Positions 9,666 through 48,212 of a DNA stretch of 60,918 nucleotides are shown piece after piece. The stretch spans positions 1 to 60,918 of IMG/VR virus record IMGVR_UViG_3300009180_000046. One strand, 5' to 3'. The DNA is from a virus (lineage: Duplodnaviria; Caudoviricetes). The position numbers were made by a program, and so were the translations under genes. Position 1 is the first letter of the stretch, and the number at the start of each line of letters is the position of its first letter. The notes beneath the pieces were generated by a model that was not told the origin of the DNA, searched no databases, and saw nothing but the letters and a program-made list of their open reading frames with translations.

Positions 9666-9684
9666 TTGAATAATAAATAGTATT

Positions 9685-9882: not shown

Positions 9883-9896
9883 TAATAAATAACAAT

Positions 9897-10588: not shown

Positions 10589-10589
10589 T

Positions 10590-10733: not shown

Positions 10734-10742
10734 AAAAATAAC

Positions 10743-12047: not shown

Positions 12048-12048
12048 T

Positions 12049-12056
12049 TAACTTTG
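12049..12056 (+). promoter_or_regulatory. -7 promoter element
   Basis: TAACTTTG 20 nt before ATG 12077. Confidence 0.55.
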
Positions 12057-12076
12057 TTACTTAAACAAGATAAGAA

Positions 12077-12340
12077 ATGGGAGTTTTAAATTATATGCAG
12101 TCTGGCCGTGCGGCAGCTGTCACACCATCCAATACCGATAATATTCCTAGTGTATCAGGAGGAACAAATGATGAAGGATGTATCCTTTACATTGGGGGAG
12201 CTGGTAACTTAAAGGTGTTAACAATTGGTGGCGATGAGGTTATCTTCTACGCAGTTCCAGCAGGTACAACTCTTCAAGTTCGTGTAGTAAGAGTTTTCTC
12301 TACAGGAACAGCAGCTACCAACATTGTTGCTCTTTGGTAA
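12077..12340 (+). CDS. head spike-base / decoration protein (RcGTA Rcc01079-like)
   Basis: AAAVTPS...LYIGGAGNLKV...VPAGT.L.VRV.RV..TGT.AT.IVALW. Confidence 0.7.
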   Translation: MGVLNYMQSGRAAAVTPSNTDNIPSVSGGTNDEGCILYIGGAGNLKVLTIGGDEVIFYAVPAGTTLQVRVVRVFSTGTAATNIVALW

Positions 12341-12504
12341 TGACGGAAGACGATTTGAAAATAGGGATACTGAACATGACGAGCTTAATGCTGTCATTTA
12401 CAACTATCGAGACTACACTGCGTGTTCTCTTGTTAGGTATATCAATTGCGTACACAGGGTTTAAGCTATATAAAATTATAAAAGAAAGAAGTAAATGGCT
12501 TTAA
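12340..12504 (+). CDS. putative holin (54 aa)
   Basis: Manual translation MTEDDLKIGILNMTSLMLSFTTIETTLRVLLLGISIAYTGFKLYKIIKERSKWL. Confidence 0.55.
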   Translation: MTEDDLKIGILNMTSLMLSFTTIETTLRVLLLGISIAYTGFKLYKIIKERSKWL

Positions 12505-12740
12505 AAGATATTTTTAAAGACTCTAATGACATCAACGAGCAATCAGTTGCAGCATTTATTGCAATTGGCTTAGTTGTTATTATCACCATTGTGGATGTTG
12601 TAACAGGCGTACTTGGTCGTGAATTAGTTATTAAAGAGTTTATTTTTATTTCTCTTTTAACATTTGCTGCTGCAGCCTTAGGTATTGCAGGATATAAAGC
12701 ATTAAATAGTAAGTCAAATGGCGAAGGCGAAAGCGAGTAA
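12495..12740 (+). CDS. 2-TM membrane protein (holin-like)
   Basis: Two hydrophobic helices; lysis-region context. Confidence 0.65.
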   Translation: MALKDIFKDSNDINEQSVAAFIAIGLVVIITIVDVVTGVLGRELVIKEFIFISLLTFAAAALGIAGYKALNSKSNGEGESE

Positions 12741-12843
12741 TGAATCCAAGAAGATCACCTTTGGTGTAAGACGCAAGGGTAAGCATTCAAAGACAAGTGG
12801 CCCAAAAGACAGACGTACAAAAAAAAGTAGAGGCCAAGGATGA
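12718..12843 (+). CDS. 41-aa basic peptide ending RGQG
   Basis: Manual translation MAKAKASNESKKITFGVRRKGKHSKTSGPKDRRTKKSRGQG. Confidence 0.6.
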   Translation: MAKAKASNESKKITFGVRRKGKHSKTSGPKDRRTKKSRGQG

Positions 12844-12952
12844 TGAAAGCTGCCATATATATTGTTTCGTTTATCGTTGCTATTGCTCTGCTTATTGATA
12901 TTTATTTTGTGTATTTACATTTCTTTGACAATCAAAAAGCTAGACAAATAAC

Positions 12953-13213
12953 ATGGCACTACCAGTATCATTCAAAGACTTTGCAAAAAACCCAGTAGTA
13001 GGCACATTATTTCTTGCTTTAGCTGGGATTTCTTATTTATACATTGATGTTAGAAATACTTTTACGCAACAAATAGAAAGACAAAATGGCAAAATCGACA
13101 AAATGGAAATCAAAGTGGATGCGTGTACTAATCAGCTACGTCGCTCAGATTCTCTCCTCTCAGCTAGTGCGAGCAAAATCATGGTTCTACAACAACTTGG
13201 TCAAATAAAATGA
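12953..13213 (+). CDS. TM + coiled-coil lysis protein (holin or inner-spanin-like)
   Basis: N-terminal TM then heptad region. Confidence 0.55.
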   Translation: MALPVSFKDFAKNPVVGTLFLALAGISYLYIDVRNTFTQQIERQNGKIDKMEIKVDACTNQLRRSDSLLSASASKIMVLQQLGQIK

Positions 13214-13578
13214 GAAGTTTAGTTTTTATTTTTTTGGGTATGTTTTTATATTCTTGCTCAACAGCAGTTGCTGAACAAGATAAAAATGAAACAGACTTAG
13301 ATAATAAAAATGTTGTAGCTAAAGATGATGACTTTGCAGCCATTATGCTGCGTTCTAAAAATACAAGCACTTTTGCTTTTAGTGCTGCTAACAAAGCAGA
13401 CAAAGCTGTTGTAAATAAAATTGAGGTAACAGTTAGCAAGATTGACGAACTAGAAACCAAGGTAGAGGATTTAATAAAAACTAATGAAGAACTTAAGACT
13501 AAAGCCAATAGCATTGTTATTGAGTCTTATATTATTGAGCCAATTATCGATAGCACAATATCCAAAGAGGATAATTAA
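13210..13578 (+). CDS. putative lipoprotein (spanin-like)
   Basis: Signal peptide with lipobox LYSC; coiled coil. Confidence 0.55.
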   Translation: MRSLVFIFLGMFLYSCSTAVAEQDKNETDLDNKNVVAKDDDFAAIMLRSKNTSTFAFSAANKADKAVVNKIEVTVSKIDELETKVEDLIKTNEELKTKANSIVIESYIIEPIIDSTISKEDN

Positions 13579-13891
13579 TGGTGATACGTTGGTGGTTATG
13601 ACTGAAGGTCAGGCAATTAATATAAATAAGACTTTTAATAATTTAAAATCAGATAGTAAGCGTAGTAAATTACGTTCTGATTCGCTTAGTATTATGTTAA
13701 ACAAAGAGAGGTATAACTTCTCTAAGTCATTAGAGAATGCAGAAAACGCATATATGTTAAGTGAGGAAGAAAACCAAATGTTAAGAGAAACTCAAGGTTC
13801 GCTTAAGATTGGACGATTCGCAAAAGACATAAGTATAATTACATTTATGTTCACAATAGTAATGTTAATTAAAATATCAACAGGTAGATGA
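13484..13891 (+). CDS. signal peptide + coiled coil + C-terminal TM protein (spanin-like)
   Basis: Hydrophobic N- and C-termini; overlaps the lipoprotein gene. Confidence 0.5.
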   Translation: MKNLRLKPIALLLSLILLSQLSIAQYPKRIINGDTLVVMTEGQAININKTFNNLKSDSKRSKLRSDSLSIMLNKERYNFSKSLENAENAYMLSEEENQMLRETQGSLKIGRFAKDISIITFMFTIVMLIKISTGR

Positions 13892-14355
13892 AAATTTCAG
13901 AACACTTAGACCTTTCGGAGGTAACAAGATCAGAGACAGCAAAAAGAAAAGGAGTTAGCAATGAGCCAACACCTGAGCATTTGGAGAACTTTAAGAAGTT
14001 GGCAGAGCATGTGTTCGAGCCAATTAGAAAACACTTTGGTGTACCTATCCACATTAGTTCTGGTTACAGATCAAAAGCATTAAACGCTGCTATTGGTGGC
14101 TCGGCTACTTCTCAGCATTGCAAGGGAGAAGCTATTGACATTGACATGGATGGATCGTCTAACGGTGTGACTAACAAGATGGTCTTTGATTACATCAAGG
14201 CAAACATTAAGTTTGATCAGATGATCTGGGAGTTTGGTACAGACACGGCACCTGATTGGGTACACGTATCATATGATTCAGATGGTAAGCAAAGAGGTCA
14301 AATTTTAAAAGCAATCAAATCAAACGGAGCTACAAAGTACCTTCCATACAAATAA
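13888..14355 (+). CDS. endolysin, peptidase M15A family
   Basis: ISSGYRS..LN..IGG...SQHCKGEAID...WVHVS. Confidence 0.9.
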   Translation: MKISEHLDLSEVTRSETAKRKGVSNEPTPEHLENFKKLAEHVFEPIRKHFGVPIHISSGYRSKALNAAIGGSATSQHCKGEAIDIDMDGSSNGVTNKMVFDYIKANIKFDQMIWEFGTDTAPDWVHVSYDSDGKQRGQILKAIKSNGATKYLPYK

Positions 14356-14804
14356 TGAAAAAATTATTATTCTTATTATTGTTAATTATAACAATTTCTT
14401 GCCGTCCAACAAAAACGGTGACTGAGTACAAAGAAGTTATACGTGTAGATACGTTTAAAACTATACGTACAGAAAAGATATTTCAGGCTGTACACGACAC
14501 GATGACAATTGAGAATCCGTGCGACTCTTCTGGCATTTTAAGCACGTTCTATAGCAAGATCAAGATACCACAAGGGCAAGTAATAATTCGTACCGTACGT
14601 GGCAAGATTCAAGCCACAGTGGACATTGATTCAATCGCTCATGTGTACGAGGATAAGTACCGTAGCAAAAGCGAATTAAATACTCACAACAAGAGTGTAG
14701 AAGTTATTAAGTACAGAGTTCCAACATGGGCAATTATTGTTATACTAATAGAGACTGCTATTATTGTATTGTATGCTTATTTCAAGTTTCTAGTACTTAG
14801 ATAA
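14355..14804 (+). CDS. unimolecular-spanin-like lipoprotein
   Basis: Lipobox TISC plus C-terminal TM, directly after the endolysin. Confidence 0.6.
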   Translation: MKKLLFLLLLIITISCRPTKTVTEYKEVIRVDTFKTIRTEKIFQAVHDTMTIENPCDSSGILSTFYSKIKIPQGQVIIRTVRGKIQATVDIDSIAHVYEDKYRSKSELNTHNKSVEVIKYRVPTWAIIVILIETAIIVLYAYFKFLVLR

Positions 14805-14819
14805 ATTTGCGTATTTTTG
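14802..14819 (+). promoter_or_regulatory. tandem -7 elements upstream of tail fibre
   Basis: TAAATTTG and TATTTTTG. Confidence 0.5.
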
Positions 14820-14843
14820 CTAGATAATAAGCAAAGAATATAG

Positions 14844-17800
14844 ATGGCCCGGATATCAACTTATAGCATTGACACCTATGTAACAGGACTTGATCGTGTC
14901 ATAGGCTCAGACTGGAACACAGAATATAAGACAACTAAGAATTTCACTACCAATGATATTGCCGATTATTTTAATCGGGTAGGTATTATTGATACAGGTA
15001 GTTTCAACTGGACATACAGAATGTATGCCCCGACAGAATCTCAGCCTGCGAAGACGTTTGAATTAGTTGACCATCCATACGATACAGTAGATGTTATCGC
15101 TCTTGCGGGAACCATCAAGGTTTCTTTCTTAACCCTTGCTAATACAGAGCCGGGTGTATTCATTGAAGAAACGTGGTTAGATAAAATTATTCTTATTAAT
15201 CGTCCAGGATTCCCTAGCGAATACGGACTATATAAAGTAACTGCTGTCGTTCATTCAGGCGACTACTATTTCTTAGACTTAGACTTCATTGGCGGTAACT
15301 CAGGAATTATTTACGAAGATGAGTCTGTTTCATTTGGGTTATTCTCAGGCGTAAGTGGCACAAGTGGTACGACTGGTACATCAGGTACAAGTGGTACGAC
15401 GGGTACATCAGGCTCAAGCGGAGTAAACGGCACAAGTGGCTCATCAGGCACAACAGGAACTAGTGGAACCGCAGGTACATCTGGTACTACGGGTACATCT
15501 GGCACAACAGGCACATCAGGCTCTTCGGGCACAGGTGGAACCTCAGGAACTTCGGGAACGAATGGTTCAGGTGGTACATCAGGTACACGTGGTACGTCAG
15601 GCACATCAGGTATTGATGGAATTGATGGAACAGATGGAACTTCGGGAACAGATGGTACTGGTGGAACCTCAGGAACCAATGGTTCAGCTGGTACTTCAGG
15701 TACAGATGGTACAGGAGGTACATCAGGTATAGATGGAACAAGTGGTTCGTCAGGCACATCAGGTATTGATGGCACAAGCGGTGTTGACGGAACAAGCGGT
15801 ACTACAGGTACTTCAGGTACTGCAGGTACTGACGGAACAGGTGGCACTAGTGGAACTTCGGGTGTTAGTGGTACAAGTGGTATTGATGGTACATCAGGTA
15901 CAACAGGTACTAGCGGTTCATCAGGCACAGACGGTACAGGTGGAACTTCAGGTACTAATGGTACGGGTGGAACATCGGGAGTTTCAGGAACAGCAGGTAC
16001 ATCAGGAACAACAGGCACTAGTGGCTCAGGAGGTACTTCTGGAACAGGAGGTACATCGGGGCAAAATGGTGCATCTAATAACTTATTTCTATATAGAGCA
16101 CGCACAACAATTCAAACAGGTTATCCTAGTGATGGACATTTATTGTGGAACAATGCTACACAAATAAATTCAACTCAAATTAATATCAGTCATCTTACTG
16201 ATAATGGAATTGATATTGATATCTTTTTGGGATTGATTCAAGATTCACAACAGATTACAATACAGGATCAAAATCTTTCGGATAATTATCAAACTTGGAA
16301 TGTTAATGGTACGCCAACAGAAGTTTTAGGAGTTGATAATTATTGGATAGTACCTGTTACTTTAATATCATCAGCTGGTACAGGTACAACAAACTTTGCC
16401 AACAACCATCCATTATTCTTAGCTATTGTTTCCCAATCAGGAACCTCAGGCGTAAATGGTACTTCAGGAACCAGTGGTACTACAGGTACTTCAGGTACAG
16501 GTGGTACATCGGGTATTAATGGAACATCGGGTTCATCAGGAATTAATGGCACTAGTGGCATAAGTGGCACGTCAGGAGTTAGTGGAACCTCAGGTATAAA
16601 TGGAACTAGTGGTATTGATGGTACTAGTGGCGTAAGCGGTACAAGTGGCGTTAGTGGAACCGCAGGTACTTCAGGTGTAAATGGAACATCAGGAGTATCA
16701 GGTACCTCAGGAATTAACGGAACTAGTGGAATTAATGGTACGAGTGGCGTTAGCGGCACCTCAGGAACCGGAGGTACTAGTGGTACAGGTGGAACAAGTG
16801 GAACAACTCCTGACCCATCACTATATGTGTTGAAGTCAGGTAGTACAATGACAGGTGGTTTAGTTATTAATCCTGCAAACTCAGCAGTAATTGGACTTGA
16901 TGCTGCATCTGATACATTTAGATTGCGTTCAGATAGCACACAACCTTTTGCTCGTCAATTAACTACTACTATGGGTAGTGGTACAACTGTTAAGATTCAA
17001 GCGGCAGGATATACTGGAACGTATGTTACTGACATAGGATTGTACACATCTTCTAACTCGTCAGTAAATAGCACACCTAATATTTACTTAACAGGTGGCG
17101 ATAACCGTGTAGGCATTAATAACGTAACCCCTGCTTATACACTAGATGTAACAGGTACTGCAGGAGTATCAGGTCAGTTAACATTAGGCTCTACTATTAC
17201 TAATGGCACATATACTTATACATTGCCGGGTGCTACGGGTACACTTGCTTTAGTAGGTAGTTTAGGCTCTTATGTTCCTTATACAGGTGCAACTACAGAT
17301 GTAGTTTTAGGAACTAATAACTTGAAATCTAAGAGCGTTTATGTAGAAGGAGATGGAGCCTTTACAAGTGGTGCTTTATTTTTAAAGCAATACGCTTCAG
17401 GTGCTACAAACGTTACAGGTTACAATATAATTACAACGCAAACAAGTGGATTCTTATTTTCTGCTTCGGTAGCAGCTAGCTTTAAAAACTTTATTTTAGA
17501 TGCAAGCTCGCTTACAGATGTAACACAAAGAACATATACGCTTCCTAATGCTTCAGGCACTCTTGCCTTAACATCTAGTTTAGCTTCTTACGTTCCCTAC
17601 ACAGGTGCAACGGGAGCGGTAAACTTAGGTGCTTTTGATTTAACGGTAAATAGCATAAGAGTTGGTAGAGGAGCAGGAAGTATAGCGGATAACATAGCAG
17701 TAGGGGCTTCTGCTCTTAATTCTAATACAACAGGAACTTCAAATACGGCAGTAGGAAATCTTTCCTTATTTACTAATACAACGGGAGGAGGTAATTCTTC

Positions 17801-33067: not shown

Positions 33068-33963
33068 TGAATCAGGAAAAATATTACACCAATGATGGGG
33101 TTTCGCCCACCGATGCCAATTGGGGCACGTATCAAAATGTAACATTAGGTGATGTTGTTAATAACTTCATCTTAATGTATACAGACGATGGTGATTTATT
33201 GAATAACATCAATAGATACAAGATATTGTTTCACGCTAAAAGAGCTGTGCAAGAACTGAATTACGATGGAAATCGTCAGACAAATGCATTACAACTAGAA
33301 GTTGGGCATGATTTAAAATTCGTGCTACCTCCTGATTACGTGAACTATGTTCGTGTATCTTTATTTCATGGAGGTATTTTGTACCCTATGTCTGAAGATC
33401 CTCAAGCTAATACAGCTATTGAATTCTTGCAAGATGACCAGTATCAAATTTTATTTGATGACCAAGGTAATGCTTTGCAAGGAACGTCTAAGTTAGACTT
33501 ATCTCGTATAGATGGTATTAACTATCAGATATGCCCATTCAATAATCAGTGGGGATGGTATGTAGACGGACTATGGTATTTTGCTTATGGCTACGGAGCC
33601 GTGTACGGGCTTAATACAGAGACGGCTAATACTAACCCTACCTTTAGGGTAGATAAGGCTACAGGTGTCATTAATTTTAGTTCGGGCATGTTTAACCGGT
33701 CAGTGGTGTTGGAGTATATCTCTGATGGACTGTATCCAGGTGACGACGCTCAGATTACTATTGCAAAGTTAGCAGAGGAGTATATTTACTCATATATCAA
33801 GTGGGCTATTTTAAATACTAAGGCAAACCAGCCCGAGTATGTTATTAACAGAGCTCGTAAAGAAAAAGTTTCCAATTGGAGAAACACAAAGATTAGATTA
33901 AGTAATTTACACCCGGGTCGCTTGTTGATGAACATGAGAGGCCAATCTAAGTGGATTAAGTAA
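33067..33963 (+). CDS. tail ring/structural protein
   Basis: LPPDYVNYVRVS, VLEYISDG. Confidence 0.65.
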   Translation: MNQEKYYTNDGVSPTDANWGTYQNVTLGDVVNNFILMYTDDGDLLNNINRYKILFHAKRAVQELNYDGNRQTNALQLEVGHDLKFVLPPDYVNYVRVSLFHGGILYPMSEDPQANTAIEFLQDDQYQILFDDQGNALQGTSKLDLSRIDGINYQICPFNNQWGWYVDGLWYFAYGYGAVYGLNTETANTNPTFRVDKATGVINFSSGMFNRSVVLEYISDGLYPGDDAQITIAKLAEEYIYSYIKWAILNTKANQPEYVINRARKEKVSNWRNTKIRLSNLHPGRLLMNMRGQSKWIK

Positions 33964-36900
33964 ATGATAGAACTTCAAAGAAACTTCCTTTCAGGGGTCA
34001 TGAATAAAGACCTTGACCCTCATTTTTTACCAGATGGTGCATATAGAGATGCGCTTAATATTATTGTGGGTGATTCTGATGGGGCATTTGTCGAGGAAGA
34101 TGGCTCACGTAATGGCGTAGCTCAAAACTACTTAGGTAATATTTTAAAGGGAAGTGATTTAGAGTTAGTCAATGCAATGTGTATTGGGTCTCTTGCGTAC
34201 GAAACAAATAATTCAATTTATTGGTTAGTAGCATCCGATACCCTAGATGCTATATATGAGTATAATGAAACATTAGATACATTAACTCCAGTTATTCAAG
34301 CTACTAAACTAACATCTACCACGCCTTCATTGCTTGGCTTTAACAAGGAGTATTTTGTTACAGGCATAAATTATATCAATGGACTTCTTTTCTGGACTGA
34401 CAACTTAAATCCTCCCCGCAGGATTAATATTGATCGTGCAAAGAATTATGCGGTAGATGGGTTTACCGATGCGGACATTAATGTCATCTTGGCCCCACCA
34501 TTATCTGCACCAACAATTAACTTATATTCAGAAGGTGAGGCCAATAACTTAGAGAATAAGTTTCTTTACTTTTCTTATAGATATAAGTATTTAGATAACG
34601 AATATAGTGCCCTGTCTCCATTTTCTCCTGTAGCTTTCTTCCCAAAAGAATACGCATATGACTATGGTGTATCAGAGAATATATCTATGGTTAATAATTT
34701 TAACACAGCAGATATAACTTTTAATTCAGGTGATAAGAATGTAAAAGAAATACAATTAATATTTAGGGATACATTAAGTACAAATACCTATGTGATTGAT
34801 AATTTAGTTAAATTATTAAATGATTACACGGACAATACAGAATATTCTTTTCAATTTAAAAATAATAAAGTATTTACATTATTGCCAATTGAGCAAGTAA
34901 ATAGACTTTTTGACAATGTACCAATTAGAGCAAAGTCTCAAGAATTAATTGGAAGCAGATTGGTGTATGGTAATTATACCCAATTCTTTGATTTATTAAA
35001 GGAGAACAAGGAGCCCATCAATCCAGCCTTCTCTGTATCATTTATACCTAATTCGGTGGTTAGCGGTACTCCTACTCCTACATTTAAGAGTAATAGAGAT
35101 TACGAAATTGGTATTGTATATTTAGATGATTATGGCAGAACAACTACTGTAATTACGCCTACAGAAAATACTAATACAGTATTTATACCAGCATCGAGTG
35201 CCATTAAGGCAAATAATATTCGAATTACTATTGATGGGACATACCAACCTCCTGCTTTTGCTACGTATTATCGTTTTATGATTAAACAAGATAAGCAAGA
35301 GTACTATAATTTATTCCCATTGACTTATTTTGAAGATGGTCAATTTAAATGGTTCTTGATTAATCAAGCGGATCAAGACAAGATATCTGTAGGTTCTTAT
35401 TTGTATTTAAAGGGCTTGTCAAATAATACCAATATACAATATAAGGTATTAGACATTCAGTCTAAAAATGCAAACTTTTTAAATACGTCTAACGTAAATC
35501 AACCCGCAGGTGTATATTTTAGAATAAAAATTGATGATGCAGTCTTACCTCCAATTACATCTTATTCAGATGCTCAAGTAAGTGATAGCTCATCTACAGA
35601 CACACCTGTTTTTGATAGATTTAGTGTTGCTGAGAATGCAATATTTTATGGTATAGGGTTAAATGATATGACCACTGGTGCATCAAATGCATATAGTGGG
35701 GTAGATGATATTAGATTCTATGTTCAAATAGATAGCGCAAGTACATTTAAATATTACGCTACATATAAGGGAACGTATAAGAATTTAGTTGCATCAAATG
35801 TAGCCATAACGGCAGGCGTTGATCAAGTTTTGACATATTCGGGCCTTAGTTGTTCGATTAATTTTGTATCAGCAACAGGTCATACAATAGATGATTATTG
35901 GGTTGTAAACTGTGTTAGTACAGGAGGTTATAGTATTTTCGGTGGATCTACTAACGAAAGTACATTGCTTTATCCTACTGCATTTTTTACGTTTACAGAT
36001 TGGTCAATAAGCCCATCAGATGATGAGGACAGACCAATTAAAGCGGGTGCTATAGTTACCTTTAAATATAAGGAAACTGACAACACTGACCAGTGGATTA
36101 CTCAAACATTTATCTCAACAAAGGACTATGTTAACATAGAGGAATGGTTTGTTGAAGATTATGTATATAAAAAATGGATTCAATATGATGGTCAATCTAA
36201 AAATTTAGGTGCAAGAAATATTGTATTTAGAAGAGGTGTAGCATCTGCTATAAATCCATCTAGAATATCTCAAGGTGGATCTATAAGTACTGCTTCATTA
36301 GCTTATCCTGTCTATATGTATTTCTATACATATCAATCTACAACAAGTGGAGCTAACGTAGATACTAATTTTAATCTACAGCAATCTGATTATCCATCTT
36401 TGTTTGAGACAGTTCCAGTAGACACCAATCAAGATATATATTATGAGCTTTCACAAACGTATCCTATTATCAATGGCAATCACTATGGAAATGTTGATAA
36501 TCAAGATGTTGCGTTGGGGGCTCCGGCAATAATAGATTTAAACACCTTAAATTTTAATTCAGATTTTAATGCATTTACATTTGGTAACGGAGTAGAAAGT
36601 TTTAGAATTCGTGACGACTTTAATTCCGCAACAATGCAGTTTAGCCCACGAGCTAACTCAACTATTGAAGGATATAAGCAGGAAACGGTTGTTCAGGCAT
36701 TAACATATAGCGGTGTTTATACTCAAACAACCGGAATTAATAGATTAAATGAGTTTAATTTATCACTTGGTAACTTTAAATATTTAGATAGATTCTTTGG
36801 TTCTATTCAAAAATTGTATTCAAGAGATACGGATTTAGTTGTATTGCAAGAAAACAAAGTATCTAAAGTTCTTTATGGTAAAAATTTATTAAGTGATTCT

Positions 36901-38082
36901 ACTGGAGGTGGCGTGGTAACATCCGTTCCCGAAGTGTTAGGAACTCAAATTGCTTACATAGGGGAATATGGAATTAGTTTAAACCCTGAAAGTTTTACTA
37001 TATGGGGTAATGACTTATTCTTTACAGATGCAAGACGTGGTGCTGTTTTGGCATTACAACCTAATGGGCTATTTGAGATATCTTCTCAAGGAATGAAGAA
37101 CTGGTTTAAGGCTAACCTAGATACTAATACAGTAAAACTAGGAATGTTTGATCCGTATTTTGAAAATTATGTATTAGCTGCAGATAATGATAGAAAAATT
37201 AAAACTTGTTCTATATCTGTTACTCCTACAACATTAACATTTGACGGCACTGTTCAAAAGAAATCATTCTATATTGAGTCTAATACTGATTGGATAATAA
37301 CAGTCCCTGTTAATGATTGGTTAACAGTTAGCGATATATTTGGTTCAAATAATCAATTGATTTATGTAGAAGTTTTAGAAAATTTAGGAGCTCCAAGAGA
37401 TTTAGATATTACAATATCTGGTTGTACTGAAGATATTATATTAACTGTTGAACAAGATACGAGACCACCATTAGACGAATACTATGTAATGCATAAGTGT
37501 TCTGACGGTGCTGAAGCTAATTCTATTGCATACCCAGCTGACACATTTGAAATTGATGATAGAGTTACATCAGGTGGTAATACTTATGTTATAGATGGTA
37601 TTATTAATTATAATCCGGGAGGTTCATTGCTTGCAATTACTGCAACAGGATTAACAGGATGCCCTAGTGCTCCTAGTTATGAGTGGTATGTTTTATATAA
37701 ATGCTCTGATGGATCATCAGCAAACTCAGAAGTTTACGCAGGTAATACATTTGAGTTAGATGATAGAGTCACATCGGGTGGTAATACATATATTGTAGAT
37801 GGTATTATTAATTACAATCCGGGTGGTACTTTGCTTGCAATTACTGCGACGGGATTAACAGGATGTCCTAGCCCAACTACTTATTATGAGTTAGCTGAGT
37901 GTTCACCTGGTACAGGATACGCATATACCACAATTGTTCCAGGAGCAGTTGGAAGAAGATATGTATTACCTAGTGGAAGCCCTATTTTCTATACGTTTAC
38001 AGGAGCTACATTATCGCAATACTCGCCTCCTGTTGGGTATAATGGCTCAATTCAAATAACATCGTTCTATAGTTGTCCGTAA
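33964..38082 (+). CDS. tail muzzle/stabilisation protein with C-terminal BACON-like Ig domain and Cys-bounded repeats
   Basis: GVMNKDLDP..LP.G.YRDALN N-terminus, LFWTDNLNPPR.IN, FTDARRGAVL; BACON pattern near aa 1085-1165. Confidence 0.75.
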   Translation: MIELQRNFLSGVMNKDLDPHFLPDGAYRDALNIIVGDSDGAFVEEDGSRNGVAQNYLGNILKGSDLELVNAMCIGSLAYETNNSIYWLVASDTLDAIYEYNETLDTLTPVIQATKLTSTTPSLLGFNKEYFVTGINYINGLLFWTDNLNPPRRINIDRAKNYAVDGFTDADINVILAPPLSAPTINLYSEGEANNLENKFLYFSYRYKYLDNEYSALSPFSPVAFFPKEYAYDYGVSENISMVNNFNTADITFNSGDKNVKEIQLIFRDTLSTNTYVIDNLVKLLNDYTDNTEYSFQFKNNKVFTLLPIEQVNRLFDNVPIRAKSQELIGSRLVYGNYTQFFDLLKENKEPINPAFSVSFIPNSVVSGTPTPTFKSNRDYEIGIVYLDDYGRTTTVITPTENTNTVFIPASSAIKANNIRITIDGTYQPPAFATYYRFMIKQDKQEYYNLFPLTYFEDGQFKWFLINQADQDKISVGSYLYLKGLSNNTNIQYKVLDIQSKNANFLNTSNVNQPAGVYFRIKIDDAVLPPITSYSDAQVSDSSSTDTPVFDRFSVAENAIFYGIGLNDMTTGASNAYSGVDDIRFYVQIDSASTFKYYATYKGTYKNLVASNVAITAGVDQVLTYSGLSCSINFVSATGHTIDDYWVVNCVSTGGYSIFGGSTNESTLLYPTAFFTFTDWSISPSDDEDRPIKAGAIVTFKYKETDNTDQWITQTFISTKDYVNIEEWFVEDYVYKKWIQYDGQSKNLGARNIVFRRGVASAINPSRISQGGSISTASLAYPVYMYFYTYQSTTSGANVDTNFNLQQSDYPSLFETVPVDTNQDIYYELSQTYPIINGNHYGNVDNQDVALGAPAIIDLNTLNFNSDFNAFTFGNGVESFRIRDDFNSATMQFSPRANSTIEGYKQETVVQALTYSGVYTQTTGINRLNEFNLSLGNFKYLDRFFGSIQKLYSRDTDLVVLQENKVSKVLYGKNLLSDSTGGGVVTSVPEVLGTQIAYIGEYGISLNPESFTIWGNDLFFTDARRGAVLALQPNGLFEISSQGMKNWFKANLDTNTVKLGMFDPYFENYVLAADNDRKIKTCSISVTPTTLTFDGTVQKKSFYIESNTDWIITVPVNDWLTVSDIFGSNNQLIYVEVLENLGAPRDLDITISGCTEDIILTVEQDTRPPLDEYYVMHKCSDGAEANSIAYPADTFEIDDRVTSGGNTYVIDGIINYNPGGSLLAITATGLTGCPSAPSYEWYVLYKCSDGSSANSEVYAGNTFELDDRVTSGGNTYIVDGIINYNPGGTLLAITATGLTGCPSPTTYYELAECSPGTGYAYTTIVPGAVGRRYVLPSGSPIFYTFTGATLSQYSPPVGYNGSIQITSFYSCP
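37483..37872 (+). repeat. 204-bp tandem coding duplication
   Basis: Units start at 37483 and 37687: YV..KCSDG..ANS..Y...TFE.DDRVTSGGNTY..DGIINYNPGG.LLAITATGLTGCPS. Confidence 0.9.
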
Positions 38083-38109
38083 CATTAAAATAAGTAAATT
38101 TGTAAGCAT

Positions 38110-38838
38110 ATGGCTAACTATACAATAACATATTCTCCAAGATTATCAGGATGGACATCATACCACTCATATTTACCTGAGTGGATGGTGTCTATGAATA
38201 ATTATTTGTACACATTTAAGAACGGTAATTTATATAAGCACAATTCTAATACAACTAGAAATAGTTATTATGGCGTATTATACCCATCTAAAATAACTAC
38301 TATTTTTAATAATGAGCCATCGCAAACCAAATCTTTCAAAACCATAGCCACTAATTCAACTACTGCTTGGGAAACAGATATTTTATCTGACCAAGGGAGT
38401 GGTTATATTGATGCAGGATGGTATGATTTAAAGGAAGGCACATGGTATGGCTATATTAGAAGAACTGAATTATCTGCTAATAATATATCTATGACATCTG
38501 TCCAAGGTATAGGCAATGTGACTACTTATGTAGCAGGTGTACTTACATTTGCTTTTGACATTGGTCACATAATTAGTACAGGAGATACTCTTTATTGGGT
38601 GAATTCAGGCGTACTTACGCTTATTGGTACAATAACAGCGCATGCTGCAAATACGGTGACAGTAACTGTAACAGGAACTCCACCAACAAATGGTAGCTTT
38701 ATTCTTTATGAAAAAAGTCCAGTAGCTGAATCTAGTCCAACAAGAGGAACTTATCTAAGCGTAGAGTTTACTAATAGCGATACTACTTATACAGAAATGT
38801 TTATGGTAACTTCTGACGTATTCAAGAGTTATCCTTGA
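38110..38838 (+). CDS. tail protein (muzzle C-terminal-like)
   Basis: TITYS....GWTSYHSYLPEWM..MNN.LYTFKNG.LYKHN; TAAATTTG at 38095. Confidence 0.65.
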   Translation: MANYTITYSPRLSGWTSYHSYLPEWMVSMNNYLYTFKNGNLYKHNSNTTRNSYYGVLYPSKITTIFNNEPSQTKSFKTIATNSTTAWETDILSDQGSGYIDAGWYDLKEGTWYGYIRRTELSANNISMTSVQGIGNVTTYVAGVLTFAFDIGHIISTGDTLYWVNSGVLTLIGTITAHAANTVTVTVTGTPPTNGSFILYEKSPVAESSPTRGTYLSVEFTNSDTTYTEMFMVTSDVFKSYP

Positions 38839-38859
38839 TAATTTAATTATATTTGTAGA

Positions 38860-39267
38860 ATGGAATTTAATATTAGGTTGCTAAACGAAAGTGACTATGA
38901 TGACATTCTAGCTAAATGGTGGAAAGATTGGGGGGGAGAAATACCTCCAAGAGATTCATTAGCTAATAATGGCACTGGTGGTTTTATGGTTTCAAAAGGA
39001 GATGTAGACATTTGTGCTGGATTTGCTTATTATACCAACTCATCAATTGCATTTTGTGAATTTGTTGTTTCTAATTATAATTATAGAGAAAAAGATAGAA
39101 ACAAAGCTATTGAATTTTTAATTGAAAGTTTATGCTTAGCATGCAAAGAAGCCGGATATAAGGTTATGTGGGCTTCCGTTCAAAATAAAAACTTAATAAA
39201 TAAATATAAAAATACAGGGTATATTCAAACACAATCAAATTGTGTAGAATTAATAAAACATTTATAA
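38860..39267 (+). CDS. GNAT-fold acetyltransferase-like protein
   Basis: IRLL.ESDY..L..WW, ICAGF.Y, L...YK..GY; position before ejection genes. Confidence 0.6.
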   Translation: MEFNIRLLNESDYDDILAKWWKDWGGEIPPRDSLANNGTGGFMVSKGDVDICAGFAYYTNSSIAFCEFVVSNYNYREKDRNKAIEFLIESLCLACKEAGYKVMWASVQNKNLINKYKNTGYIQTQSNCVELIKHL

Positions 39268-39268
39268 T

Positions 39269-39985
39269 ATGGGTCTTGAAACCGCAGCAGCAATAGGTTT
39301 AGGAATATCAGCACTAGGTTCTGGTTATCAAATATTTCAAGGTGCTAGAGCTAAGTCAGATGCAAGTAGTGCAGCTGCACAAGCTGCGCAACAATATGCT
39401 TCCATTCAAGAAGGCAATAAGTTTAATGAATTACAAGTACCTACATTGGGGCTTGAATTGGCGCAACAAAACCTGCAAGCAAGACAAGCTAGTAATATTC
39501 AAGCATTACAAGAAGGTGGTGCTGCAACGGTTTTAGGCGGGTTAACTGCTGCAAACCAACAAGCTCAAGCTCAAGATTTACAATTAGCAGCACAAGCTCA
39601 AGAAGCGCAATATGCTCGTGATATGGCTCAAGCTCAGAACGCACAACAACTAGAAGCAAATCGTGTAAATCGGGGAGCTGGTTTAGCTCAAAGTAGACTA
39701 CAAGGTGCTCAAGTTGCTGCTGCTGAAGGAGCGGGTGCTATAGCTGCGGGTATTGGTGGGTTAGCTGAAGCTGGAGTTAGTGCTGCTACTTTATCAGCAT
39801 ATAAAGATATCTATGGAAACAAAAAGGGGACTTTAGGTGATACAGATTTTGGTCAATCAGTAAAAACTTATTCAAACCAATTAAAAACTGATCCTATCTT
39901 AGGAGCAGGTTATTTAGGAGTACCTATTGGATTGGGTGGATATTATATGAATCCAGCAATCACTCAATTACCCCAACCAAAATAA
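39269..39985 (+). CDS. internal virion/ejection protein
   Basis: Ala/Gln/Gly-rich with hydrophobic N-terminus. Confidence 0.65.
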   Translation: MGLETAAAIGLGISALGSGYQIFQGARAKSDASSAAAQAAQQYASIQEGNKFNELQVPTLGLELAQQNLQARQASNIQALQEGGAATVLGGLTAANQQAQAQDLQLAAQAQEAQYARDMAQAQNAQQLEANRVNRGAGLAQSRLQGAQVAAAEGAGAIAAGIGGLAEAGVSAATLSAYKDIYGNKKGTLGDTDFGQSVKTYSNQLKTDPILGAGYLGVPIGLGGYYMNPAITQLPQPK

Positions 39986-39987
39986 TT

Positions 39988-41490
39988 ATGGCAGAATACG
40001 CAGGATATGTAGCATCGCAGCCGGTAGATTATGGCAAAATAGGAACAGGACTTGTTTCTAACCTTATTTCTATACAGGAAAAAAAGGCTGAGTATGATGA
40101 AAAAAAACAATTAACTCTTGAAAAGCAACAAGAAAAAGAAGATGTATTATTAGATAGAGATAGCCAAAAAATACAAGATCAAATTAATAAAGATATTTCT
40201 AGTACAGGTTCTCAGAACTTGCAAAGAATAAGTAGTCAATCTGTATACGAAGCTGCTAATGCTGCAGCTCAATTAGGAAGATTAGCCAAGGCTGACAGAA
40301 AAAATGCATATGCATACACTCAAAAGGCCCAAGCATTAGCTAAAAATGTTGGCAGCTTAAGACAAACATTTAATGCCTACGCAAAAGGTTATGATGAAAT
40401 TTTAAAATTAAGTGCAGGACAAGAATTAGATGCATTAGGAGAGGCTATGGCTAAAGATTATGCGCAAGCTGGCGATTTAAATGATGTAAATGCTGGTGTT
40501 GCAAATGATCAAAAAATTGTTTTTTATAAAAAAGATCCAAAAACTGGAGAAGTTATTACTATGGATCCAGAAGTTTATACGGATTACAATAGATTTGTTT
40601 CTAAAAAAGTAGATTACAATAAACTTTTTAATGATTTTACGACCAATAGAATAGGCGAATTTGAGTCTACCTCAAGAGGAGGTGCTTTAACCAAGATTGA
40701 TAGCACTTCAATAATGAATAACCCTAATTTTGAGCCTGAAAAGAAAAAATTCGTTAGTAATTTAACTGCAACTCCATTCAGTACTGCTAAATTTTTAACC
40801 ACGGAAGATCCTAGTTATCAAATTTATCGCGATGAAACTGAGAAAAAACAGTTAATTGAAGATGGTTTTGATGAAAACAAATTAATTAAATTAGGTAAAG
40901 ATGCGGGTGGATACCCTAAGCCTATTATAACAGATGAGATGAAAACTGTTGCTGAGAAATTAGCATCAGATAAAATACAGGCATCTGTTTCATTTAAAAC
41001 AACAGAAAGAAAGAACCCTAATATTATTATTACAACACCTAAGGAGCCTAAGGATATACCAAGGATGGATGTAGTAGAAGCTAAGAAAAAAATACGTCAA
41101 ATTGAATCAAAAGATGATTCTGATGCTATATTTAGAAAAGCTCCAGGATCTGTAGTTAAGTTGGAAAATTTGGCTAAAAAAGCTGGATATAAAAATGTAA
41201 CAATAGTTGATTTACCTGGGGGAGGTCTGGGTATTAGAGCAACAGTGGGAGCTGAAAAAAGACCTTCTAAAGCTAAGGTAATTCAAGAATTCACTAATGG
41301 AGAATCCATTTATTCTTGGAGAAATGGTTTAGACCCTATTGTTGGATCAAATGAATATGCAGAATTAGCTCAAGAAAGAAAAGAAGATTATTTAGACATT
41401 GTTAATGCTGGTAAGGGGCAGATGTTAAAGAGAGCAGCAAAGAGTACAGGTGCAACAAGCACCCAAAAAAAACCAGGTAAATACGACTAG
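39988..41490 (+). CDS. internal virion/ejection protein
   Basis: 500-aa helical protein between ejection genes. Confidence 0.6.
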   Translation: MAEYAGYVASQPVDYGKIGTGLVSNLISIQEKKAEYDEKKQLTLEKQQEKEDVLLDRDSQKIQDQINKDISSTGSQNLQRISSQSVYEAANAAAQLGRLAKADRKNAYAYTQKAQALAKNVGSLRQTFNAYAKGYDEILKLSAGQELDALGEAMAKDYAQAGDLNDVNAGVANDQKIVFYKKDPKTGEVITMDPEVYTDYNRFVSKKVDYNKLFNDFTTNRIGEFESTSRGGALTKIDSTSIMNNPNFEPEKKKFVSNLTATPFSTAKFLTTEDPSYQIYRDETEKKQLIEDGFDENKLIKLGKDAGGYPKPIITDEMKTVAEKLASDKIQASVSFKTTERKNPNIIITTPKEPKDIPRMDVVEAKKKIRQIESKDDSDAIFRKAPGSVVKLENLAKKAGYKNVTIVDLPGGGLGIRATVGAEKRPSKAKVIQEFTNGESIYSWRNGLDPIVGSNEYAELAQERKEDYLDIVNAGKGQMLKRAAKSTGATSTQKKPGKYD

Positions 41491-41505: not shown

Positions 41506-44500
41506 ATGGATAACGGAAAAAGTTTATATAAACAATTGAGTTCGGATAAATTATATACAAAGTCATATGATGATTTTGTTAAACAATATGGTAACCCAGA
41601 AGGGCAAAAAGAACTGTTTAACAAATTAAGTTCAGATGATTTATATACTAAATCTGAAGAAGAATTTGTTAGTCAATACTGGTCTCCTTTAAAAAAAAAA
41701 GAACCTACGGTATCGAATTCCACTTTGCCGGCTGCTCCATCTACATTGGGATCAAAAGACTTGGGGAAGAAACTTATTTTGGAGTCTGCTTCAAAAGGTA
41801 CTAAAGAAAAGAAACCAAAGCCTGGTGAGAGTGAAGGGTTGCTATTAAAGGATCCTAGTAAATTCAACATAAACTACTTTGACCCATCTAAAAAAGATTG
41901 GCAAGGTCAGTTATATGAGGATGTTAAGATTGAGGATTTGTCTAAAAGTGTTACCACATCTGCTAATGATTTAGCTAAGATGAGTAAGGATTATAAGGCA
42001 AAACAAGATGCATTAAACAAAGAGATAGAAAGCCTAAATGGTCTTATTCAAACTGGATCTATTTCTCCACAAGAAGCTGCTCAAGCACAATCTGAATTAA
42101 AAAAACAGCAAGACTTAACAACTTTTGAGTCTGTTAAAATCTCTGAACTCGCAAGAAGAACAGAGGCTGATCAAGCACGTTTAAATAAAAATGTAGGAGT
42201 ATTAGCATACGAGAAAGCCCACGAAGGATCATTTGGTGGTGCTGCTTGGAATAGTATTGTTGATTCAATAAAAGGAATCGTTAGTGCATATGATACAATA
42301 GGCAATGAAATTTTCACTGAAAACCTAGCTTTATTTCAAGGTATAGGTGCTCTTGCATCTTCTAAATCTGCAAAAGATTGGGAAAAAGAAGCTTTAAAAA
42401 AGAATTTAAGTAAAGCACAAAAAGATAGGAGAGAACGTGTTTTTGAAGAAATAAAATCCTCAACAACGAAAGAGTATGCTGCTCGCATATCAAAAGAAAG
42501 CGATTGGGCCGCTGCTGCACTTGGTGTAACTGGATCTGTTGTACCAATGTTTACAGGTAGTATGTTTACTTCCACGTTTGGTTCCGCAAAAGAGGCTCTA
42601 GACGATATGGAAGGGTCTGAAAATATGACCGAAGGAGAGAAAGTAATCTATGCTACATCAGTGGGTTTGGTTGCAAGAAAACTTGAGAACCTTGGTTTGA
42701 AAGGAATTCAGGCCGCAGTAAAGGGGACAGCTGGTCCAGTAGCTAAATTTGCATCTTGGGTATTTAGATCAGTCCCTAAAAATGCACCAATAAGTATTAT
42801 AGAGAAAAAAGTAGCCGAGTTAGCTGCAACTACAGCTGGACAAAAAATATTACAATTAGCTGATACAAAGGTGGGTAAAGCTGCAGTTGGATTAGGTGAA
42901 TCTATAGTCAGTGAAGGGTATACAGGTGGTTCACAGAAAGCTGCTGAAATGGGAATACAAGAACTAGTTGATTCAGCTAATGGTCTTGATGTATTTAAAA
43001 ACCCAGAATTAACTTCGGCTGCAGCTGCAGAAGCTATTGTACAAGATGCTAAGTTAGAAGCCATGGGTTCTGTACTTATGTTTGGGGTTGGATATGGAGC
43101 AAAGACTTTATTACAAGCTTCCACATCTGGTAAACTATCAGACAAACAATATGCAGATTACAAAGCAATGTTATCTAGCCCAGAATTGTACCAGGCAAAA
43201 ATATCTGAAATTAGTAAGCGCATTTCTAATGAACAAATAACCGTAGAAGAAGGTCAGGTAGAAGTTGATGAGATTAATAAAGCAAGAGATATCATCAAAC
43301 AAATACCAGAAAATCTATCTGAGAACAGTCAAAAGAAAGCGTTCTTATTAATATCTGAGAATAATAAAGTACAAGAAGAAATTGATCAGTTATCAAAAGA
43401 AATAGCTGACAAAAACCCTCAACTTGTTACAGGTGTAACCGAGCAGATAAATAAGAAACAAGAAGTAATAAATAATAATAATCAAAAACTTTTAGCCCTA
43501 CCACAAAATGCCGTTCAAGAGCAAACAACAAGTGAAGTACCTGTACAGCCAGAAACCGGAGTTAGCGGAGAAGTGGCGAAAGGAGAACCCCAATCAGAAA
43601 ATCAAGTCCCTATCGAAGAAGGTAAAGGGCAAGAAGTAGAAATTAAAAATGAAGGTAAAGCGGAATCACCTACAACAGAAAATGTTGAAGTAAGATTGCG
43701 TATAAATAATCCTTTTTATCAAAAAGTTTCAGATGCCTTAGATAAACTTGGTATAATTAAAAAATTTAATCCAGAAACACGAGAGGGTGATATTATTGGT
43801 GGTGTTCAACAGCCGATGAAAAACGGAGGTATAGCTTCTGGAGATATGTATTTTAAACCTGACGGATCAATATCATATATAAAAGATGGATATATTGTTG
43901 AGTTTGATAAAAATGGAAACGTTATTAGTCACAATAAAACAGAGGTAGAAGAAAATAATAAAAAACTAAAAACTCAAGCAGTTAAAGAAACCATAGAAAG
44001 TCTTAAGAAACAACGAGATTCAGAAGATTTTAAATACAAAGAAGTATCTGAAACTTCGGATGTTTTTGGAAATAGAAAAAAAACAAAAAGATTAAAAACA
44101 GCAGAAGAATTAAAAGAAAGTACTGATAAAATCAATGCAGCAATATCTAAAGCTGAAGAAGAATTATATCAATTAGAACCTCAAGCATCCATAGAAGAAG
44201 TATCTCCTACTGAAGAAGTTAATAAAGAAAAAGAGTTAAGAGATACTACTATAAACAAAGTTGTTGACGAAGTAAAAGAACAACAAAGAATTTACCCTAA
44301 GAGGTCTTTACTTAAGCACTTAGAATCAGGAATTAATAGTCTGCAGAAAAGTGATGCTTACGTTAATGCTGACGACATTACTAGAGAGCAAATGGTTCGT
44401 GATGTACGTAAAGCTTTAGGTGTAAAAGAAACCCGTGTTAAATCAAAGGTGTTGGCTGCAAAACCTGCCTCTAAAACTACTGTTGTAAATGATGCGGAAG

Positions 44501-48184: not shown

Positions 48185-48212
48185 AAAAATGGGGACCATG
48201 AGTCCCCTTTTT
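48185..48212. terminator. bidirectional intrinsic terminator at convergence of the two arms
   Basis: aaaaat-GGGGAC-catga-GTCCCC-tttttt. Confidence 0.85.

Follow-up and report, generated by a model that had tools for sequence, protein, structure and literature searches.

The locus described here raises the question whether a reading frame of 43 codons, lying wholly inside a giant phage gene, is a gene in its own right and, if so, how it came to lie there. It is part of the window, by which the whole stretch of DNA analyzed is meant, 60,918 nt of the IMG/VR virus record IMGVR_UViG_3300009180_000046 (Duplodnaviria; Caudoviricetes). Nested phage genes are already known, and the usual view is that they are young genes born inside older ones. 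At this locus the roles appear to be reversed, as the nested frame is old, shared and constrained and the giant host gene merely tolerates it. The features discussed below are summarized in Table 1.

Table 1. Features of the nested gene and its surroundings (positions refer to the window)
Feature	Position	Strand	Description
Giant host gene, 2225 aa	41506..48183	+	Last gene of the structural block; no family match
Leader of the nested gene, -25..-1	43483..43507	+	A-rich, G-poor, weakly structured; putative internal initiation site
TAG in the small gene's frame	43493..43495	+	Four codons 5' of the ATG; closes the frame upstream
Host-frame reading of the overlap, residues 668-711	43507..43638	+	Acidic linker rich in E, Q, P and T; stop-free, apparently a passenger
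Nested small gene	43508..43639	+	MPFKS..Q family; basic, predicted two-helix product; based on ORF, conservation, selection, family and AlphaFold2 model
G+C hairpin with T runs on both strands	48191..48207		Just 3' of the giant gene's stop

Nested frame and giant host gene

According to the sequence and the ORF list, the small frame runs from ATG to TAG over 43 codons plus the stop (132 nt) and lies entirely within the giant ORF, on the same strand and offset from it by 2002 nt, i.e. 1 mod 3, which places it in the +1 frame. A micro-gene reading cacaaaATG...TAG had been proposed here in the first-pass annotation, and the translation obtained is identical to the one given there, 43 aa. The same annotation had characterized the host frame as a spacer rich in E, Q and P; the giant reads NAVQEQTTSEVPVQPETGVSGEVAKGEP... 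at this place, in agreement with that description. The two readings of the overlap carry opposite charge, with a pI of 10.3 and a net charge of +10.5 for the small protein and a pI of 4.05 and a net charge of -7.2 for the host-frame segment. In the AlphaFold2 model of the small protein (pLDDT 84.9) helices are predicted at residues 6-15 and 17-26. Two other alternative-frame ORFs on the plus strand between 42000 and 45500 are 38 and 52 aa long.

The giant protein has no family match and no match to a solved structure in a PDB search. Neither blastn of the gene against phage records nor a search with the C-terminal 525 aa as bait revealed a relative. The label 'ejection/internal protein' follows from the position and size of the gene only. 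The equivalent gene of elemoC, a cultured Flavobacterium phage, encodes 3694 aa and is annotated as 'structural protein' in GenBank. Comparison with the 2227-aa gene of the related genome G001 gave no BLASTP similarity, and orthology of the two is proposed from position and size only.

Conservation and selection on the two frames

An alternative-frame ORF of 43 codons is in itself unremarkable, and it is the conservation of this one that goes beyond chance. Of about 790 related loci in IMG/VR, the analysis covered the best 80 out of 395 in one set and the best 80 out of 394 in the other. In 80 of 80 loci (the best 80 of about 395) the ORF is intact with its ATG, nested and without exception offset by +1 from a long ORF; the sample is biased to intact copies since the main locus sets were fetched with the peptide itself. 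Two of three metagenome loci (L085 and L087) have the ORF as well, and the third, L086, stops short of that part of the gene. The elemoC copy of the ORF is intact, too, and lies within a long ORF at an offset of +1; altogether 68 records of cultured Flavobacterium phages gave a tblastn match under the 'structural protein' gene, with elemoC being the one record read in detail. Loss of the ATG or the ORF in related giant genes, together with a lack of free-standing homologues, would have contradicted the first-pass annotation; ATG and ORF are kept in the 80 IMG/VR loci, in L085 and L087 and in elemoC.

A less biased sample of ten related records was drawn via the capsid gene. The small gene is present in seven of them, and in five of the six that are at least 90% complete; start and frame are conserved in G006, G007, G008, G010, G014 and G015. 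No copy was detectable in the complete relative G011, so some of the kin, at least, can do without the gene, and a single search gave no match in two incomplete records. The nested ORF is 41-68 aa long in the relatives, and each whole record searched holds at most one intact copy, short decayed copies aside.

Among 72 unique sequences the flanks of the giant gene have an amino-acid entropy of 2.5-3.3, and codon position 3 is the most variable there (1.65-1.85). Within the overlap the entropy of the host codons is 0.80-0.82 at position 1, 0.32-0.46 at position 2 and 0.15-0.17 at position 3. The synonymous sites of the host, which had been suggested as a check, are the most constrained positions of the overlap. 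The 132 nt are a conserved island within a fast-evolving gene, and the most conserved part of a 6.7-kb gene belongs to an unannotated one.

The variation left in the island has a three-base period and falls on the wobble positions of the small gene. In a Nei-Gojobori test of 71 unique sequences, pS was 0.60, pN 0.09 and dN/dS 0.08 in the small frame, against 0.07, 0.22 and 3.5, respectively, in the host frame, values to be read with the bias of standard dN/dS for overlapping frames. Of the possible synonymous changes, all 47 were observed in the small gene and 21 of 72 in the host, in related sequences whose counts are not independent events. A T at a wobble position of the small gene was found at none of 802 sites where a stop in the host frame would result and at 54 of 704 harmless sites. 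Among 24 free-standing relatives of the small gene, 21 have the second, host-equivalent frame interrupted within the ORF. The dual coding claimed in the first-pass annotation thus agrees with strong constraint on the small frame and a giant frame held free of stops. As judged from these comparisons, the giant frame, which reads the overlap as an acidic and disordered linker, is a passenger there that is simply kept open, and it is the small protein on which purifying selection acts. The stretch 43508..43639 is very probably a real nested gene under selection.

Family, genomic addresses and origin

The earlier description placed the peptide in a widespread family of free-standing small basic phage proteins and proposed a check for free-standing homologues. 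The family is indeed large, and nameless: a profile search gave 905 clusters at E<=1e-3, mostly free-standing, the majority being proteins of 40-90 aa matched from residue 1. Free-standing homologues were found in three phage records, namely an annotated 39-aa CDS in 023Pt_psg01 and unannotated ORFs of 36 and 34 aa that lie between genes in Synechococcus phage S-CBS2 and phage C75C1. Eleven small called proteins share 60-86% identity with the nested product.

No named family was found in Pfam, nor in NCBIfam with 95 members. Two families of small proteins with a similar start motif, phrog_1375 and DUF3008 (PF11450), neither of which has an assigned function, come closest, but matches to both stay short of a firm threshold. 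The window's small protein (P0001) matches phrog_1375 at E 0.0028 and 19 bits over residues 3-28, below the firm threshold; 10 of 12 relatives have a match at E<=0.1 (1.3e-4 for the best, likewise not firm), the elemoC peptide has no match, and among the three free-standing phage homologues only that of C75C1 matches (E 0.0047). With DUF3008, for which Pfam sets a gathering cut-off of 24 bits, P0001 has no match at E<=1 and five relatives have none at E<=10, while one of 18 wider relatives reaches 14.6 bits, under the cut-off; atlas neighbours carry DUF3008 in 14-15% of their members (scores 0.85-0.86). A PDB profile search with the small family returned only chance repeats in designed propellers, and a fold search with the AlphaFold2 model returned nothing from PDB and only unnamed 44-aa phage proteins from BFVD. 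Pfam searches of 29 longer proteins that begin with the domain gave no informative fusion partner. A family of longer relatives occurs in MAGs of many phyla (hhalign 98.5%, where the first 8 columns match by construction); genome contigs were searched by a degenerate DNA motif.

Among the kin of the window the gene has several addresses: it lies in the giant gene, in the gene at the scaffold position, in a small HTH gene adjoining the terminase genes, or free directly after the giant's stop. In at least 46 loci it occupies the +1 frame of a gene of 383-439 codons between the portal and capsid genes. This is a second, independent nesting, with a dN/dS of 0.24 in the small frame versus 1.44 in the host frame. 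Within a single syntenic phage group, one family is found both as a free gene and inside several hosts unrelated to one another, a natural series for studying how genes come to live inside others.

Contigs of other phages in metagenomes align with the window over the ORF only, where the depth rises from 6 to 148, from 49 to 647 and from 19 to 757. Dissimilar sequence sets in at 43505-43508 and, in many contigs, at 43638; replacement joints begin right 3' of the island, at 43639-43640. The left limit of the conserved block is the start codon and its farthest right limit the stop codon. The island also disrupts metagenome assemblies, and because the contigs break at it some of them could be chimeras joined at this point; that the arrangement is real is supported by the isolate genomes.

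Since so many different phage contigs share this block alone and diverge at its edges, and since the joints at 43639-43640 resemble a recombination hot spot, the island might be conserved as nucleic acid, for example as a recombination linker between modules, a structured RNA or a site for packaging or regulation, with the ORF being incidental. This is highly unlikely in view of the three-base period in the small frame, all of whose synonymous changes are seen, and of block limits that coincide with start and stop codon. In addition, homologues recognizable at the amino-acid level are free-standing genes in unrelated phages with different DNA, and around the start there is less structure than in control windows. 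A role of the island in recombination may be a by-product.

Concerning the origin of the nesting, the earlier reading was of a gene captured out of frame and retained. Its retention in the nested state is borne out; the direction of capture is an inference, as the family tree is unrooted. Capture is favoured by the breadth of the free-standing family and by the arrangement in G009. In this phage lineage larger genes would then have incorporated the small gene into their coding regions. A fusion of two flanking genes was also considered as the origin of the giant-nested form. The giant of G009 aligns with the portion of the G007 giant downstream of the nested gene, but the upstream 671-aa gene of G009 has no similarity to the N-terminal part of the window's giant, and this origin is not asserted.

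The opposite course, de novo overprinting inside a structural gene with later escape to a free-standing family, would follow what passages of two papers give as the usual origin of viral nested genes (PMC8227390, PMC3494269), and a tree that is unrooted and poorly resolved leaves room for it. We regard it as improbable given the great breadth of the family, whose 905 clusters are joined by cyanophage, sea-water and other phage records and by the longer relatives in MAGs. Free forms moreover have no open second frame, and a rough tree groups the giant-nested forms in one derived clade (65 of 66 rows, support 100/84).

Carrying the capture reading further, the gene could tentatively be seen as a 'stowaway' cassette, an idea that we hold with considerable doubt: an old small gene, cleared of stops in its second frame, which fits tolerant disordered stretches of translated genes, relocates repeatedly and serves as a crossover point. 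One register would let the host gene read the cassette through. Its addresses would include the scaffold-position gene, the HTH gene, different places within the giant gene and the free place after it. As the sole block common to many co-occurring phages, it would offer a crossover for exchanging halves of the giant gene. Nesting would then have arisen by capture and relocation rather than by overprinting, with the host linker as a by-product.

Different sites in syntenic genomes, presence in some kin and absence from others, and a conserved block equal to the ORF would also fit a selfish mobile insert that persists by its own mobility and is of no use to the phage. There is a precedent in the out-of-frame HNH endonuclease inserts, which according to parts of PMC11855218 share with the present case a stop-free host frame, an insert ORF in another frame that nearly fills the insert, and variable presence among related phages. 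The window's ORF differs from these in having no endonuclease or known mobility: searches of Pfam, NCBIfam and PDB gave no nuclease match, and Pfam and NCBIfam gave no recombinase domain either, for a product that is predicted to be a two-helix hairpin and at 43 aa is too small. With at most one intact copy per record, strong purifying selection on a tiny basic protein and a steady position of the family in head and packaging modules, a purely selfish insert is quite improbable, slightly more so than overprinting.

Initiation, function and comparison with known systems

No Shine-Dalgarno sequence is present in the leader of the nested gene, and none is obvious at the window's own listed gene starts either. 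Among 73 unique kin, A occupies position -2 in 93%, -3 in 84%, -5 in 88% and -8 in 82% of the leaders, compared with 35% A at host third positions elsewhere. The A fraction of the leader is 0.57 and its G fraction 0.10, and the MFE is -1.1 kcal/mol versus -4.7 kcal/mol in control windows. An A at -3 and weak structure are named as determinants of initiation in Flavobacterium in passages of PMC6847099. By analogy with what is described for Bacteroidota, initiation of the nested frame from its own start would be independent of a Shine-Dalgarno sequence and would proceed via the A-rich, unstructured leader with its A at -3. Ribosomes starting independently at the internal ATG would produce a basic two-helix protein of 43 aa with a Lys-rich tail.

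The message for the nested gene would be the late structural mRNA; a look-up of RNA runs listed none that contains this part of the window. There was no sign of an internal sigma-70-type promoter in a scan that gave 19 sites versus 24.7 expected, with a consensus that may not fit the host. The hairpin 3' of the giant gene probably marks where the late structural transcript, which would include both frames, terminates, although it is weak evidence alone, as the terminator scan by consensus only gave 4 sites versus 3.5 expected.

An upstream frameshift was mentioned in the first-pass annotation, and one database protein, P0014 (1075 aa), has the peptide in frame at its C-terminus. Both would fit a programmed +1 frameshift from the giant frame, yielding a shortened N-terminal portion of the giant protein that ends in a basic tail. 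The shifted frame is not open from upstream, however: only 12 nt are open ahead of the ATG in the window, and in 84 loci, all of which have the ATG, the nearest in-frame upstream stop lies a median of 5 codons away (range 0-57), in three cases directly before the ATG. The free-standing homologues start at this very Met. P0165, a cluster mate of P0014, carries the motif in nested form some 170 residues later, and contigs break at the island, so P0014 is probably a deletion variant or a chimeric assembly; a search of viral contigs gave no relative of P0014, and the metagenome scan did not yield its own contig. A programmed frameshift is accordingly very unlikely, and independent initiation at the internal ATG is preferred.

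The family is placed in head and packaging modules, though its neighbourhoods vary, and searches at the level of family, fold and fused domains gave no functional lead. From neighbours, charge and predicted fold, the small protein could possibly be an accessory of head assembly or DNA packaging, which we offer as a tentative suggestion. Docking on a component of the head or the packaging machinery would fall to the conserved N-terminal hairpin, binding of nucleic acid to the basic tail. The J protein of phiX174 is a very small, highly basic DNA-binding virion protein encoded among morphogenesis genes. It shares with the predicted nested product its tiny size, its highly basic nature and its place among morphogenesis genes, an analogy of mechanism only; no sequence or fold relation to J-like small virion proteins was found in the searches.

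Overprinted genes of small viruses, such as B, K and E of phiX174, likewise use one DNA stretch for two coding frames under asymmetric constraint. These are generally regarded as born in place and are not known to have free-standing kin. In the present case, by comparison, it is the nested frame that is old and conserved, and the host frame is a young passenger.

A further parallel is provided by embedded o-spanins (lambda Rz1 in Rz; Kongari et al. 2018, PMC6139136), in which, as described in parts of that paper, a small phage gene also lies wholly in the +1 frame of a larger one, is usually missed by gene callers and has a product rich in disorder-promoting residues. They differ in being lysis genes, and the host gene of the window belongs to a virion module and is not a known partner. 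The 43-aa product has no cysteine, hence no lipobox, and no hydrophobic signal, as would mark an o-spanin lipoprotein. The same parts of the paper distinguish embedded, overlapped and separated spanin architectures, discuss loss of a stop codon with extension as one route to embedding, and state that no spanin family combined embedded with overlapped or separated members (PMC6139136). Unlike the spanins, one sequence family is here both free-standing and nested in at least three unrelated hosts.

Giant 'hypothetical' phage genes may thus hide small genes dropped by gene callers. As cultured Flavobacterium elemo phages carry the arrangement, translation, presence in the virion and effect on fitness are directly testable. 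Changes that are silent for the giant and yet knock out the small gene exist.

Small ORF and its genomic setting

The structural block of the window, a complete record of 60,918 bp, ends with a giant gene encoding 2225 aa as its final gene. Inspection of the sequence and of the ORF listing places an ATG..TAG ORF, with the product MPFKSKQQVKYLYSQKPELAEKWRKENPNQKIKSLSKKVKGKK, wholly within this gene at an offset of 2002 nt, corresponding to the +1 frame, while the giant gene's own (host) frame is rich in E/Q/P/T over the same stretch. Both features, the complete micro-gene and the E/Q/P spacer of the host frame, had been described in the first-pass annotation and are found as described. Two further alternative-frame ORFs occur nearby; because such lengths arise by chance, the case for the small gene depends on comparison across sequences.

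Searches with family profiles and against the PDB delivered no match for the giant protein to any family or solved structure, so the designation 'ejection protein' is conjectural, being drawn from position and size only. The hairpin following the giant gene (Table) is located between its stop and the convergent genes and is likely a bidirectional terminator. Gene starts listed in the window are A/T-rich with no evident Shine-Dalgarno sequence. As the closest cultured relatives infect Flavobacterium, the host of the phage is probably a member of the Bacteroidota.

Features of the window (gene names from PHROGs matches)
Feature	Positions	Strand	Basis
Tail fibre with collagen-like repeats, 1816 aa	14844..20294		phrog_1806 and tail-fibre PHROGs
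Large terminase	24307-26520		PHROGs
Portal	26517-28949		PHROGs
Homologue of scaffold-position gene	28987-30093		
Capsid-type virion protein	30110-31525		PHROGs
More virion proteins	as far as 41490		PHROGs
Giant gene, 2225 aa	41506..48183		ORF listing
Small ORF	43508..43639	+	sequence and ORF listing
Perfect G+C hairpin, T runs flanking on both strands	48191..48207		consensus scan
Replication genes		opposite	PHROGs

Conservation and selection in the two frames

A tblastn search of phage records with the small peptide matched 68 records of Flavobacterium 'elemo' podoviruses, every match lying under a 'structural protein' gene. In phage elemoC an unannotated 42-aa ORF (8001..8129) lies inside a gene of 3694 aa (4340..15424) at offset 3661, again in +1. 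The whole giant gene gave no blastn match in the same records; the remainder of the gene has therefore diverged past recognition at the DNA level. A protein search with the peptide yielded 11 called proteins of 42-54 aa (60-86% identity), and the same nesting recurs in two of three metagenome loci, inside frames of 3548 and 3361 codons, the third stopping short of the region. A scan of IMG/VR produced 395 loci; in the best 80 of these, all retrieved with the peptide itself, the small ORF is intact (41-60 aa) and in the same register within a long ORF in every case. The ATG and ORF are thus kept in related giant genes, and the nested +1 ORF is conserved.

In a codon alignment of 72 unique host genes, the flanks of the giant gene follow the pattern of an ordinary fast-evolving gene, with entropies of 1.4-1.7, 1.2-1.7 and 1.65-1.85 at codon positions 1, 2 and 3 and an amino-acid entropy of 2.5-3.3. 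Within the overlap the order is reversed (0.80-0.82, 0.32-0.46 and 0.15-0.17), host position 1 being the wobble position of the small gene, so that synonymous sites of the host are strongly constrained there. Nei-Gojobori counts on 71 unique sequences gave pS 0.60, pN 0.09 and a ratio of 0.08 for the small frame, and pS 0.07, pN 0.22 and a ratio of 3.5 for the host frame in the overlap, values to be read with the bias that overlapping frames impart to dN/dS and with the kinship of the sequences in mind. Of the possible silent changes, 47 of 47 were observed for the small gene versus 21 of 72 for the host. The small ORF is under purifying selection.

Synonymous wobble T in the small gene occurs at none of 802 sites where it would create a host stop and at 54 of 704 other sites. 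Free-standing relatives have the equivalent second frame interrupted inside the ORF at 21 of 24 loci, often as early as codon 3. Both frames are thus preserved, the small protein being the dominant one, and the dual coding proposed in the first-pass annotation is supported.

Family and locations of the small gene

Free-standing homologues comprise an annotated 39-aa gene in phage 023Pt_psg01 and unannotated ORFs within intergenic gaps of Synechococcus phage S-CBS2 and phage C75C1. A profile from 12 members, searched against 1.84 billion representatives (E<=1e-3), matched 905 clusters, most of the listed hits being 40-90 aa long and matched from residue 1. The small gene belongs to a large family of small phage proteins, judging from these profile matches, in agreement with the first-pass annotation. 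Pfam, NCBIfam and PDB searches gave no named family or structure; phrog_1375 matched weakly, and DUF3008 is a lead below threshold only. Prokaryote assemblies scanned for the motif gave more than 120 sites, the majority of them in a longer relative family from MAGs of many phyla; hhalign links this longer family to the small one at 98.5%, the first eight columns matching by construction. These relatives (L178-L257) are small basic proteins of 49-90 aa with identical first eight residues and LPERV plus a basic tail; they are absent from Pfam and are often met with in MAGs of Gemmatimonadota, Acidobacteriota, Chloroflexota and other groups, in some cases on contigs of Mb size.

A second IMG/VR scan, seeded with divergent free-standing members, gave 394 loci; among the best 80, 56 are nested, all in +1; giant ORFs host 10 of them and a gene of 383-439 codons the other 46, in which the small gene starts 67-184 nt past the host's ATG. 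This host gene lies between portal and capsid-type genes that belong to the same PHROGs as those of the window, i.e. in the scaffold position, and selection again falls on the small frame (0.24 vs 1.44 for the host frame). The window's homologue holds no copy of the small gene. The complete record G001 (64,064 bp) is syntenic with the window (identity of terminase 63%, portal 52%, capsid 55%) and carries its sole copy in the scaffold-position gene, even though the giant position is occupied by a gene of 2227 aa. That giant gene (33457..40140, minus strand) is nearly equal in length to the window's, and each is preceded by a gene of 501 or 500 aa; BLASTP detected no similarity between the two giants at E<=1, an extreme divergence at this position between syntenic phages. 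In two further loci the small gene is nested in an HTH-like ORF of about 125 codons adjoining a small-terminase gene. This ORF (L165, 2208..2597; also L164), HTH-like in its C-part, also covers the beginning of a small-terminase-like ORF (2383..2979, phrog_1482) that runs in a different frame, which may reflect a terminase frameshift or two genes. Free-standing copies adjoin portal, terminase or scaffold/major-head genes.

Relatives were also sampled via the capsid gene, independently of the small gene. Seven of the ten longest contigs carry it (two incomplete records being judged from the first search only), six nested in the giant gene and one, G009, free; the complete record G011 gave no copy. 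Three of the six nested carriers have a divergent Cys-bearing form resembling that of elemo, two of which the first profile missed. In G009 a 57-aa small gene starts 2 nt past the stop of a 2404-aa giant gene and already stands in the +1 frame relative to that gene, so that loss of the stop would read directly into the host-frame motif of the nested forms. The G009 giant aligns, however, to the portion of the G007 giant downstream of its nested gene (E 3e-84); simple read-through is thus not the whole account, and relocation or module shuffling is required. In a rough unrooted tree of 40 columns, 65 of 66 giant-nested peptides form one clade (100/84) and the scaffold-nested peptides a separate group. 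The small gene has several addresses among related phages and was probably captured rather than born in place.

Short decayed second copies of 10, 13 and 25 codons occur in elemoC (7605..7637), G007 (plus strand, 8206) and G014 (826..903 of L382), each preceding the intact gene by a few hundred nt, in the same giant gene and +1 frame; the host frame's motif is repeated there, which points to a local duplication that later decayed.

Contigs of four freshwater metagenomes were aligned to 42900-44300 of the window. Their depth rises over the small ORF only (6 to 148, 49 to 647 and 19 to 757); contigs become unlike the window at 43505-43508 on the left and at 43552-43557 or 43638 on the right, and replacement joints begin at 43639-43640. 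The block common to many phages is therefore the small ORF itself. Public metagenome contigs break within it because many co-occurring phages have this block alone in common, and giant genes are assembled in chimeric or fragmented form as a result. Such breakage may account for database protein P0014, a truncated giant of 1075 aa ending with the small peptide in frame, which is a deletion variant or else an assembly chimera formed at the conserved island; in its 90%-cluster mate P0165 (3577 aa) the motif is nested and comes about 170 residues later.

Start signals, product and known nested genes

The ATG of the small gene is present in 84 of 84 loci, and a stop closes its frame at a median distance of 5 codons before the ATG (4 in the window), which makes a frameshift fusion of the giant and small frames unlikely. 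The 25 nt upstream hold 57% A and 10% G, with A at -2, -3, -5 and -8 in 93%, 84%, 88% and 82% of sequences against a baseline of 35% at host third positions. The region -25..+15 folds at -1.1 kcal/mol vs -4.7 in control windows taken from the same genes; just 12% of these controls are equally open. For Flavobacterium, where initiation does without Shine-Dalgarno sequences, Baez et al. (PMC6847099) identify weak structure and A at -3 as its determinants. The small protein would be translated from an internal, SD-independent start. A promoter scan of the window with a sigma-70-type consensus, which may not fit the host, revealed no prominent promoter-like site, and a search of RNA runs gave none containing the small-gene stretch.

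An AlphaFold2 model from 95 sequences (pLDDT 84.9) has its two helices at 6-15 and 17-26, with the basic tail extended; fold searches with it returned unnamed family members only. The small protein has a pI of 10.3 and a net charge of +10.5 versus 4.05 and -7.2 for the host segment, an opposition due to the genetic code. For its function, a part in the head or in packaging that involves binding of nucleic acid would be a tentative, rather doubtful assignment.

Nested phage genes are a class already known, and a literature search that left aside the primary elemo-phage paper returned nothing on the MPFKS motif or this nested arrangement. Among known kinds, the embedded o-spanin gene comes closest, with Rz1 lying within Rz. 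Kongari et al. (PMC6139136) count embedded, overlapped and separated o-spanin architectures in 182, 228 and 118 phages and state that no family combines embedded members with overlapped or separated ones. An out-of-frame HNH insert in a phage methylase gene, through which the host gene reads (PMC11855218), resembles the small gene in its cassette-like behaviour but differs in encoding a nuclease.
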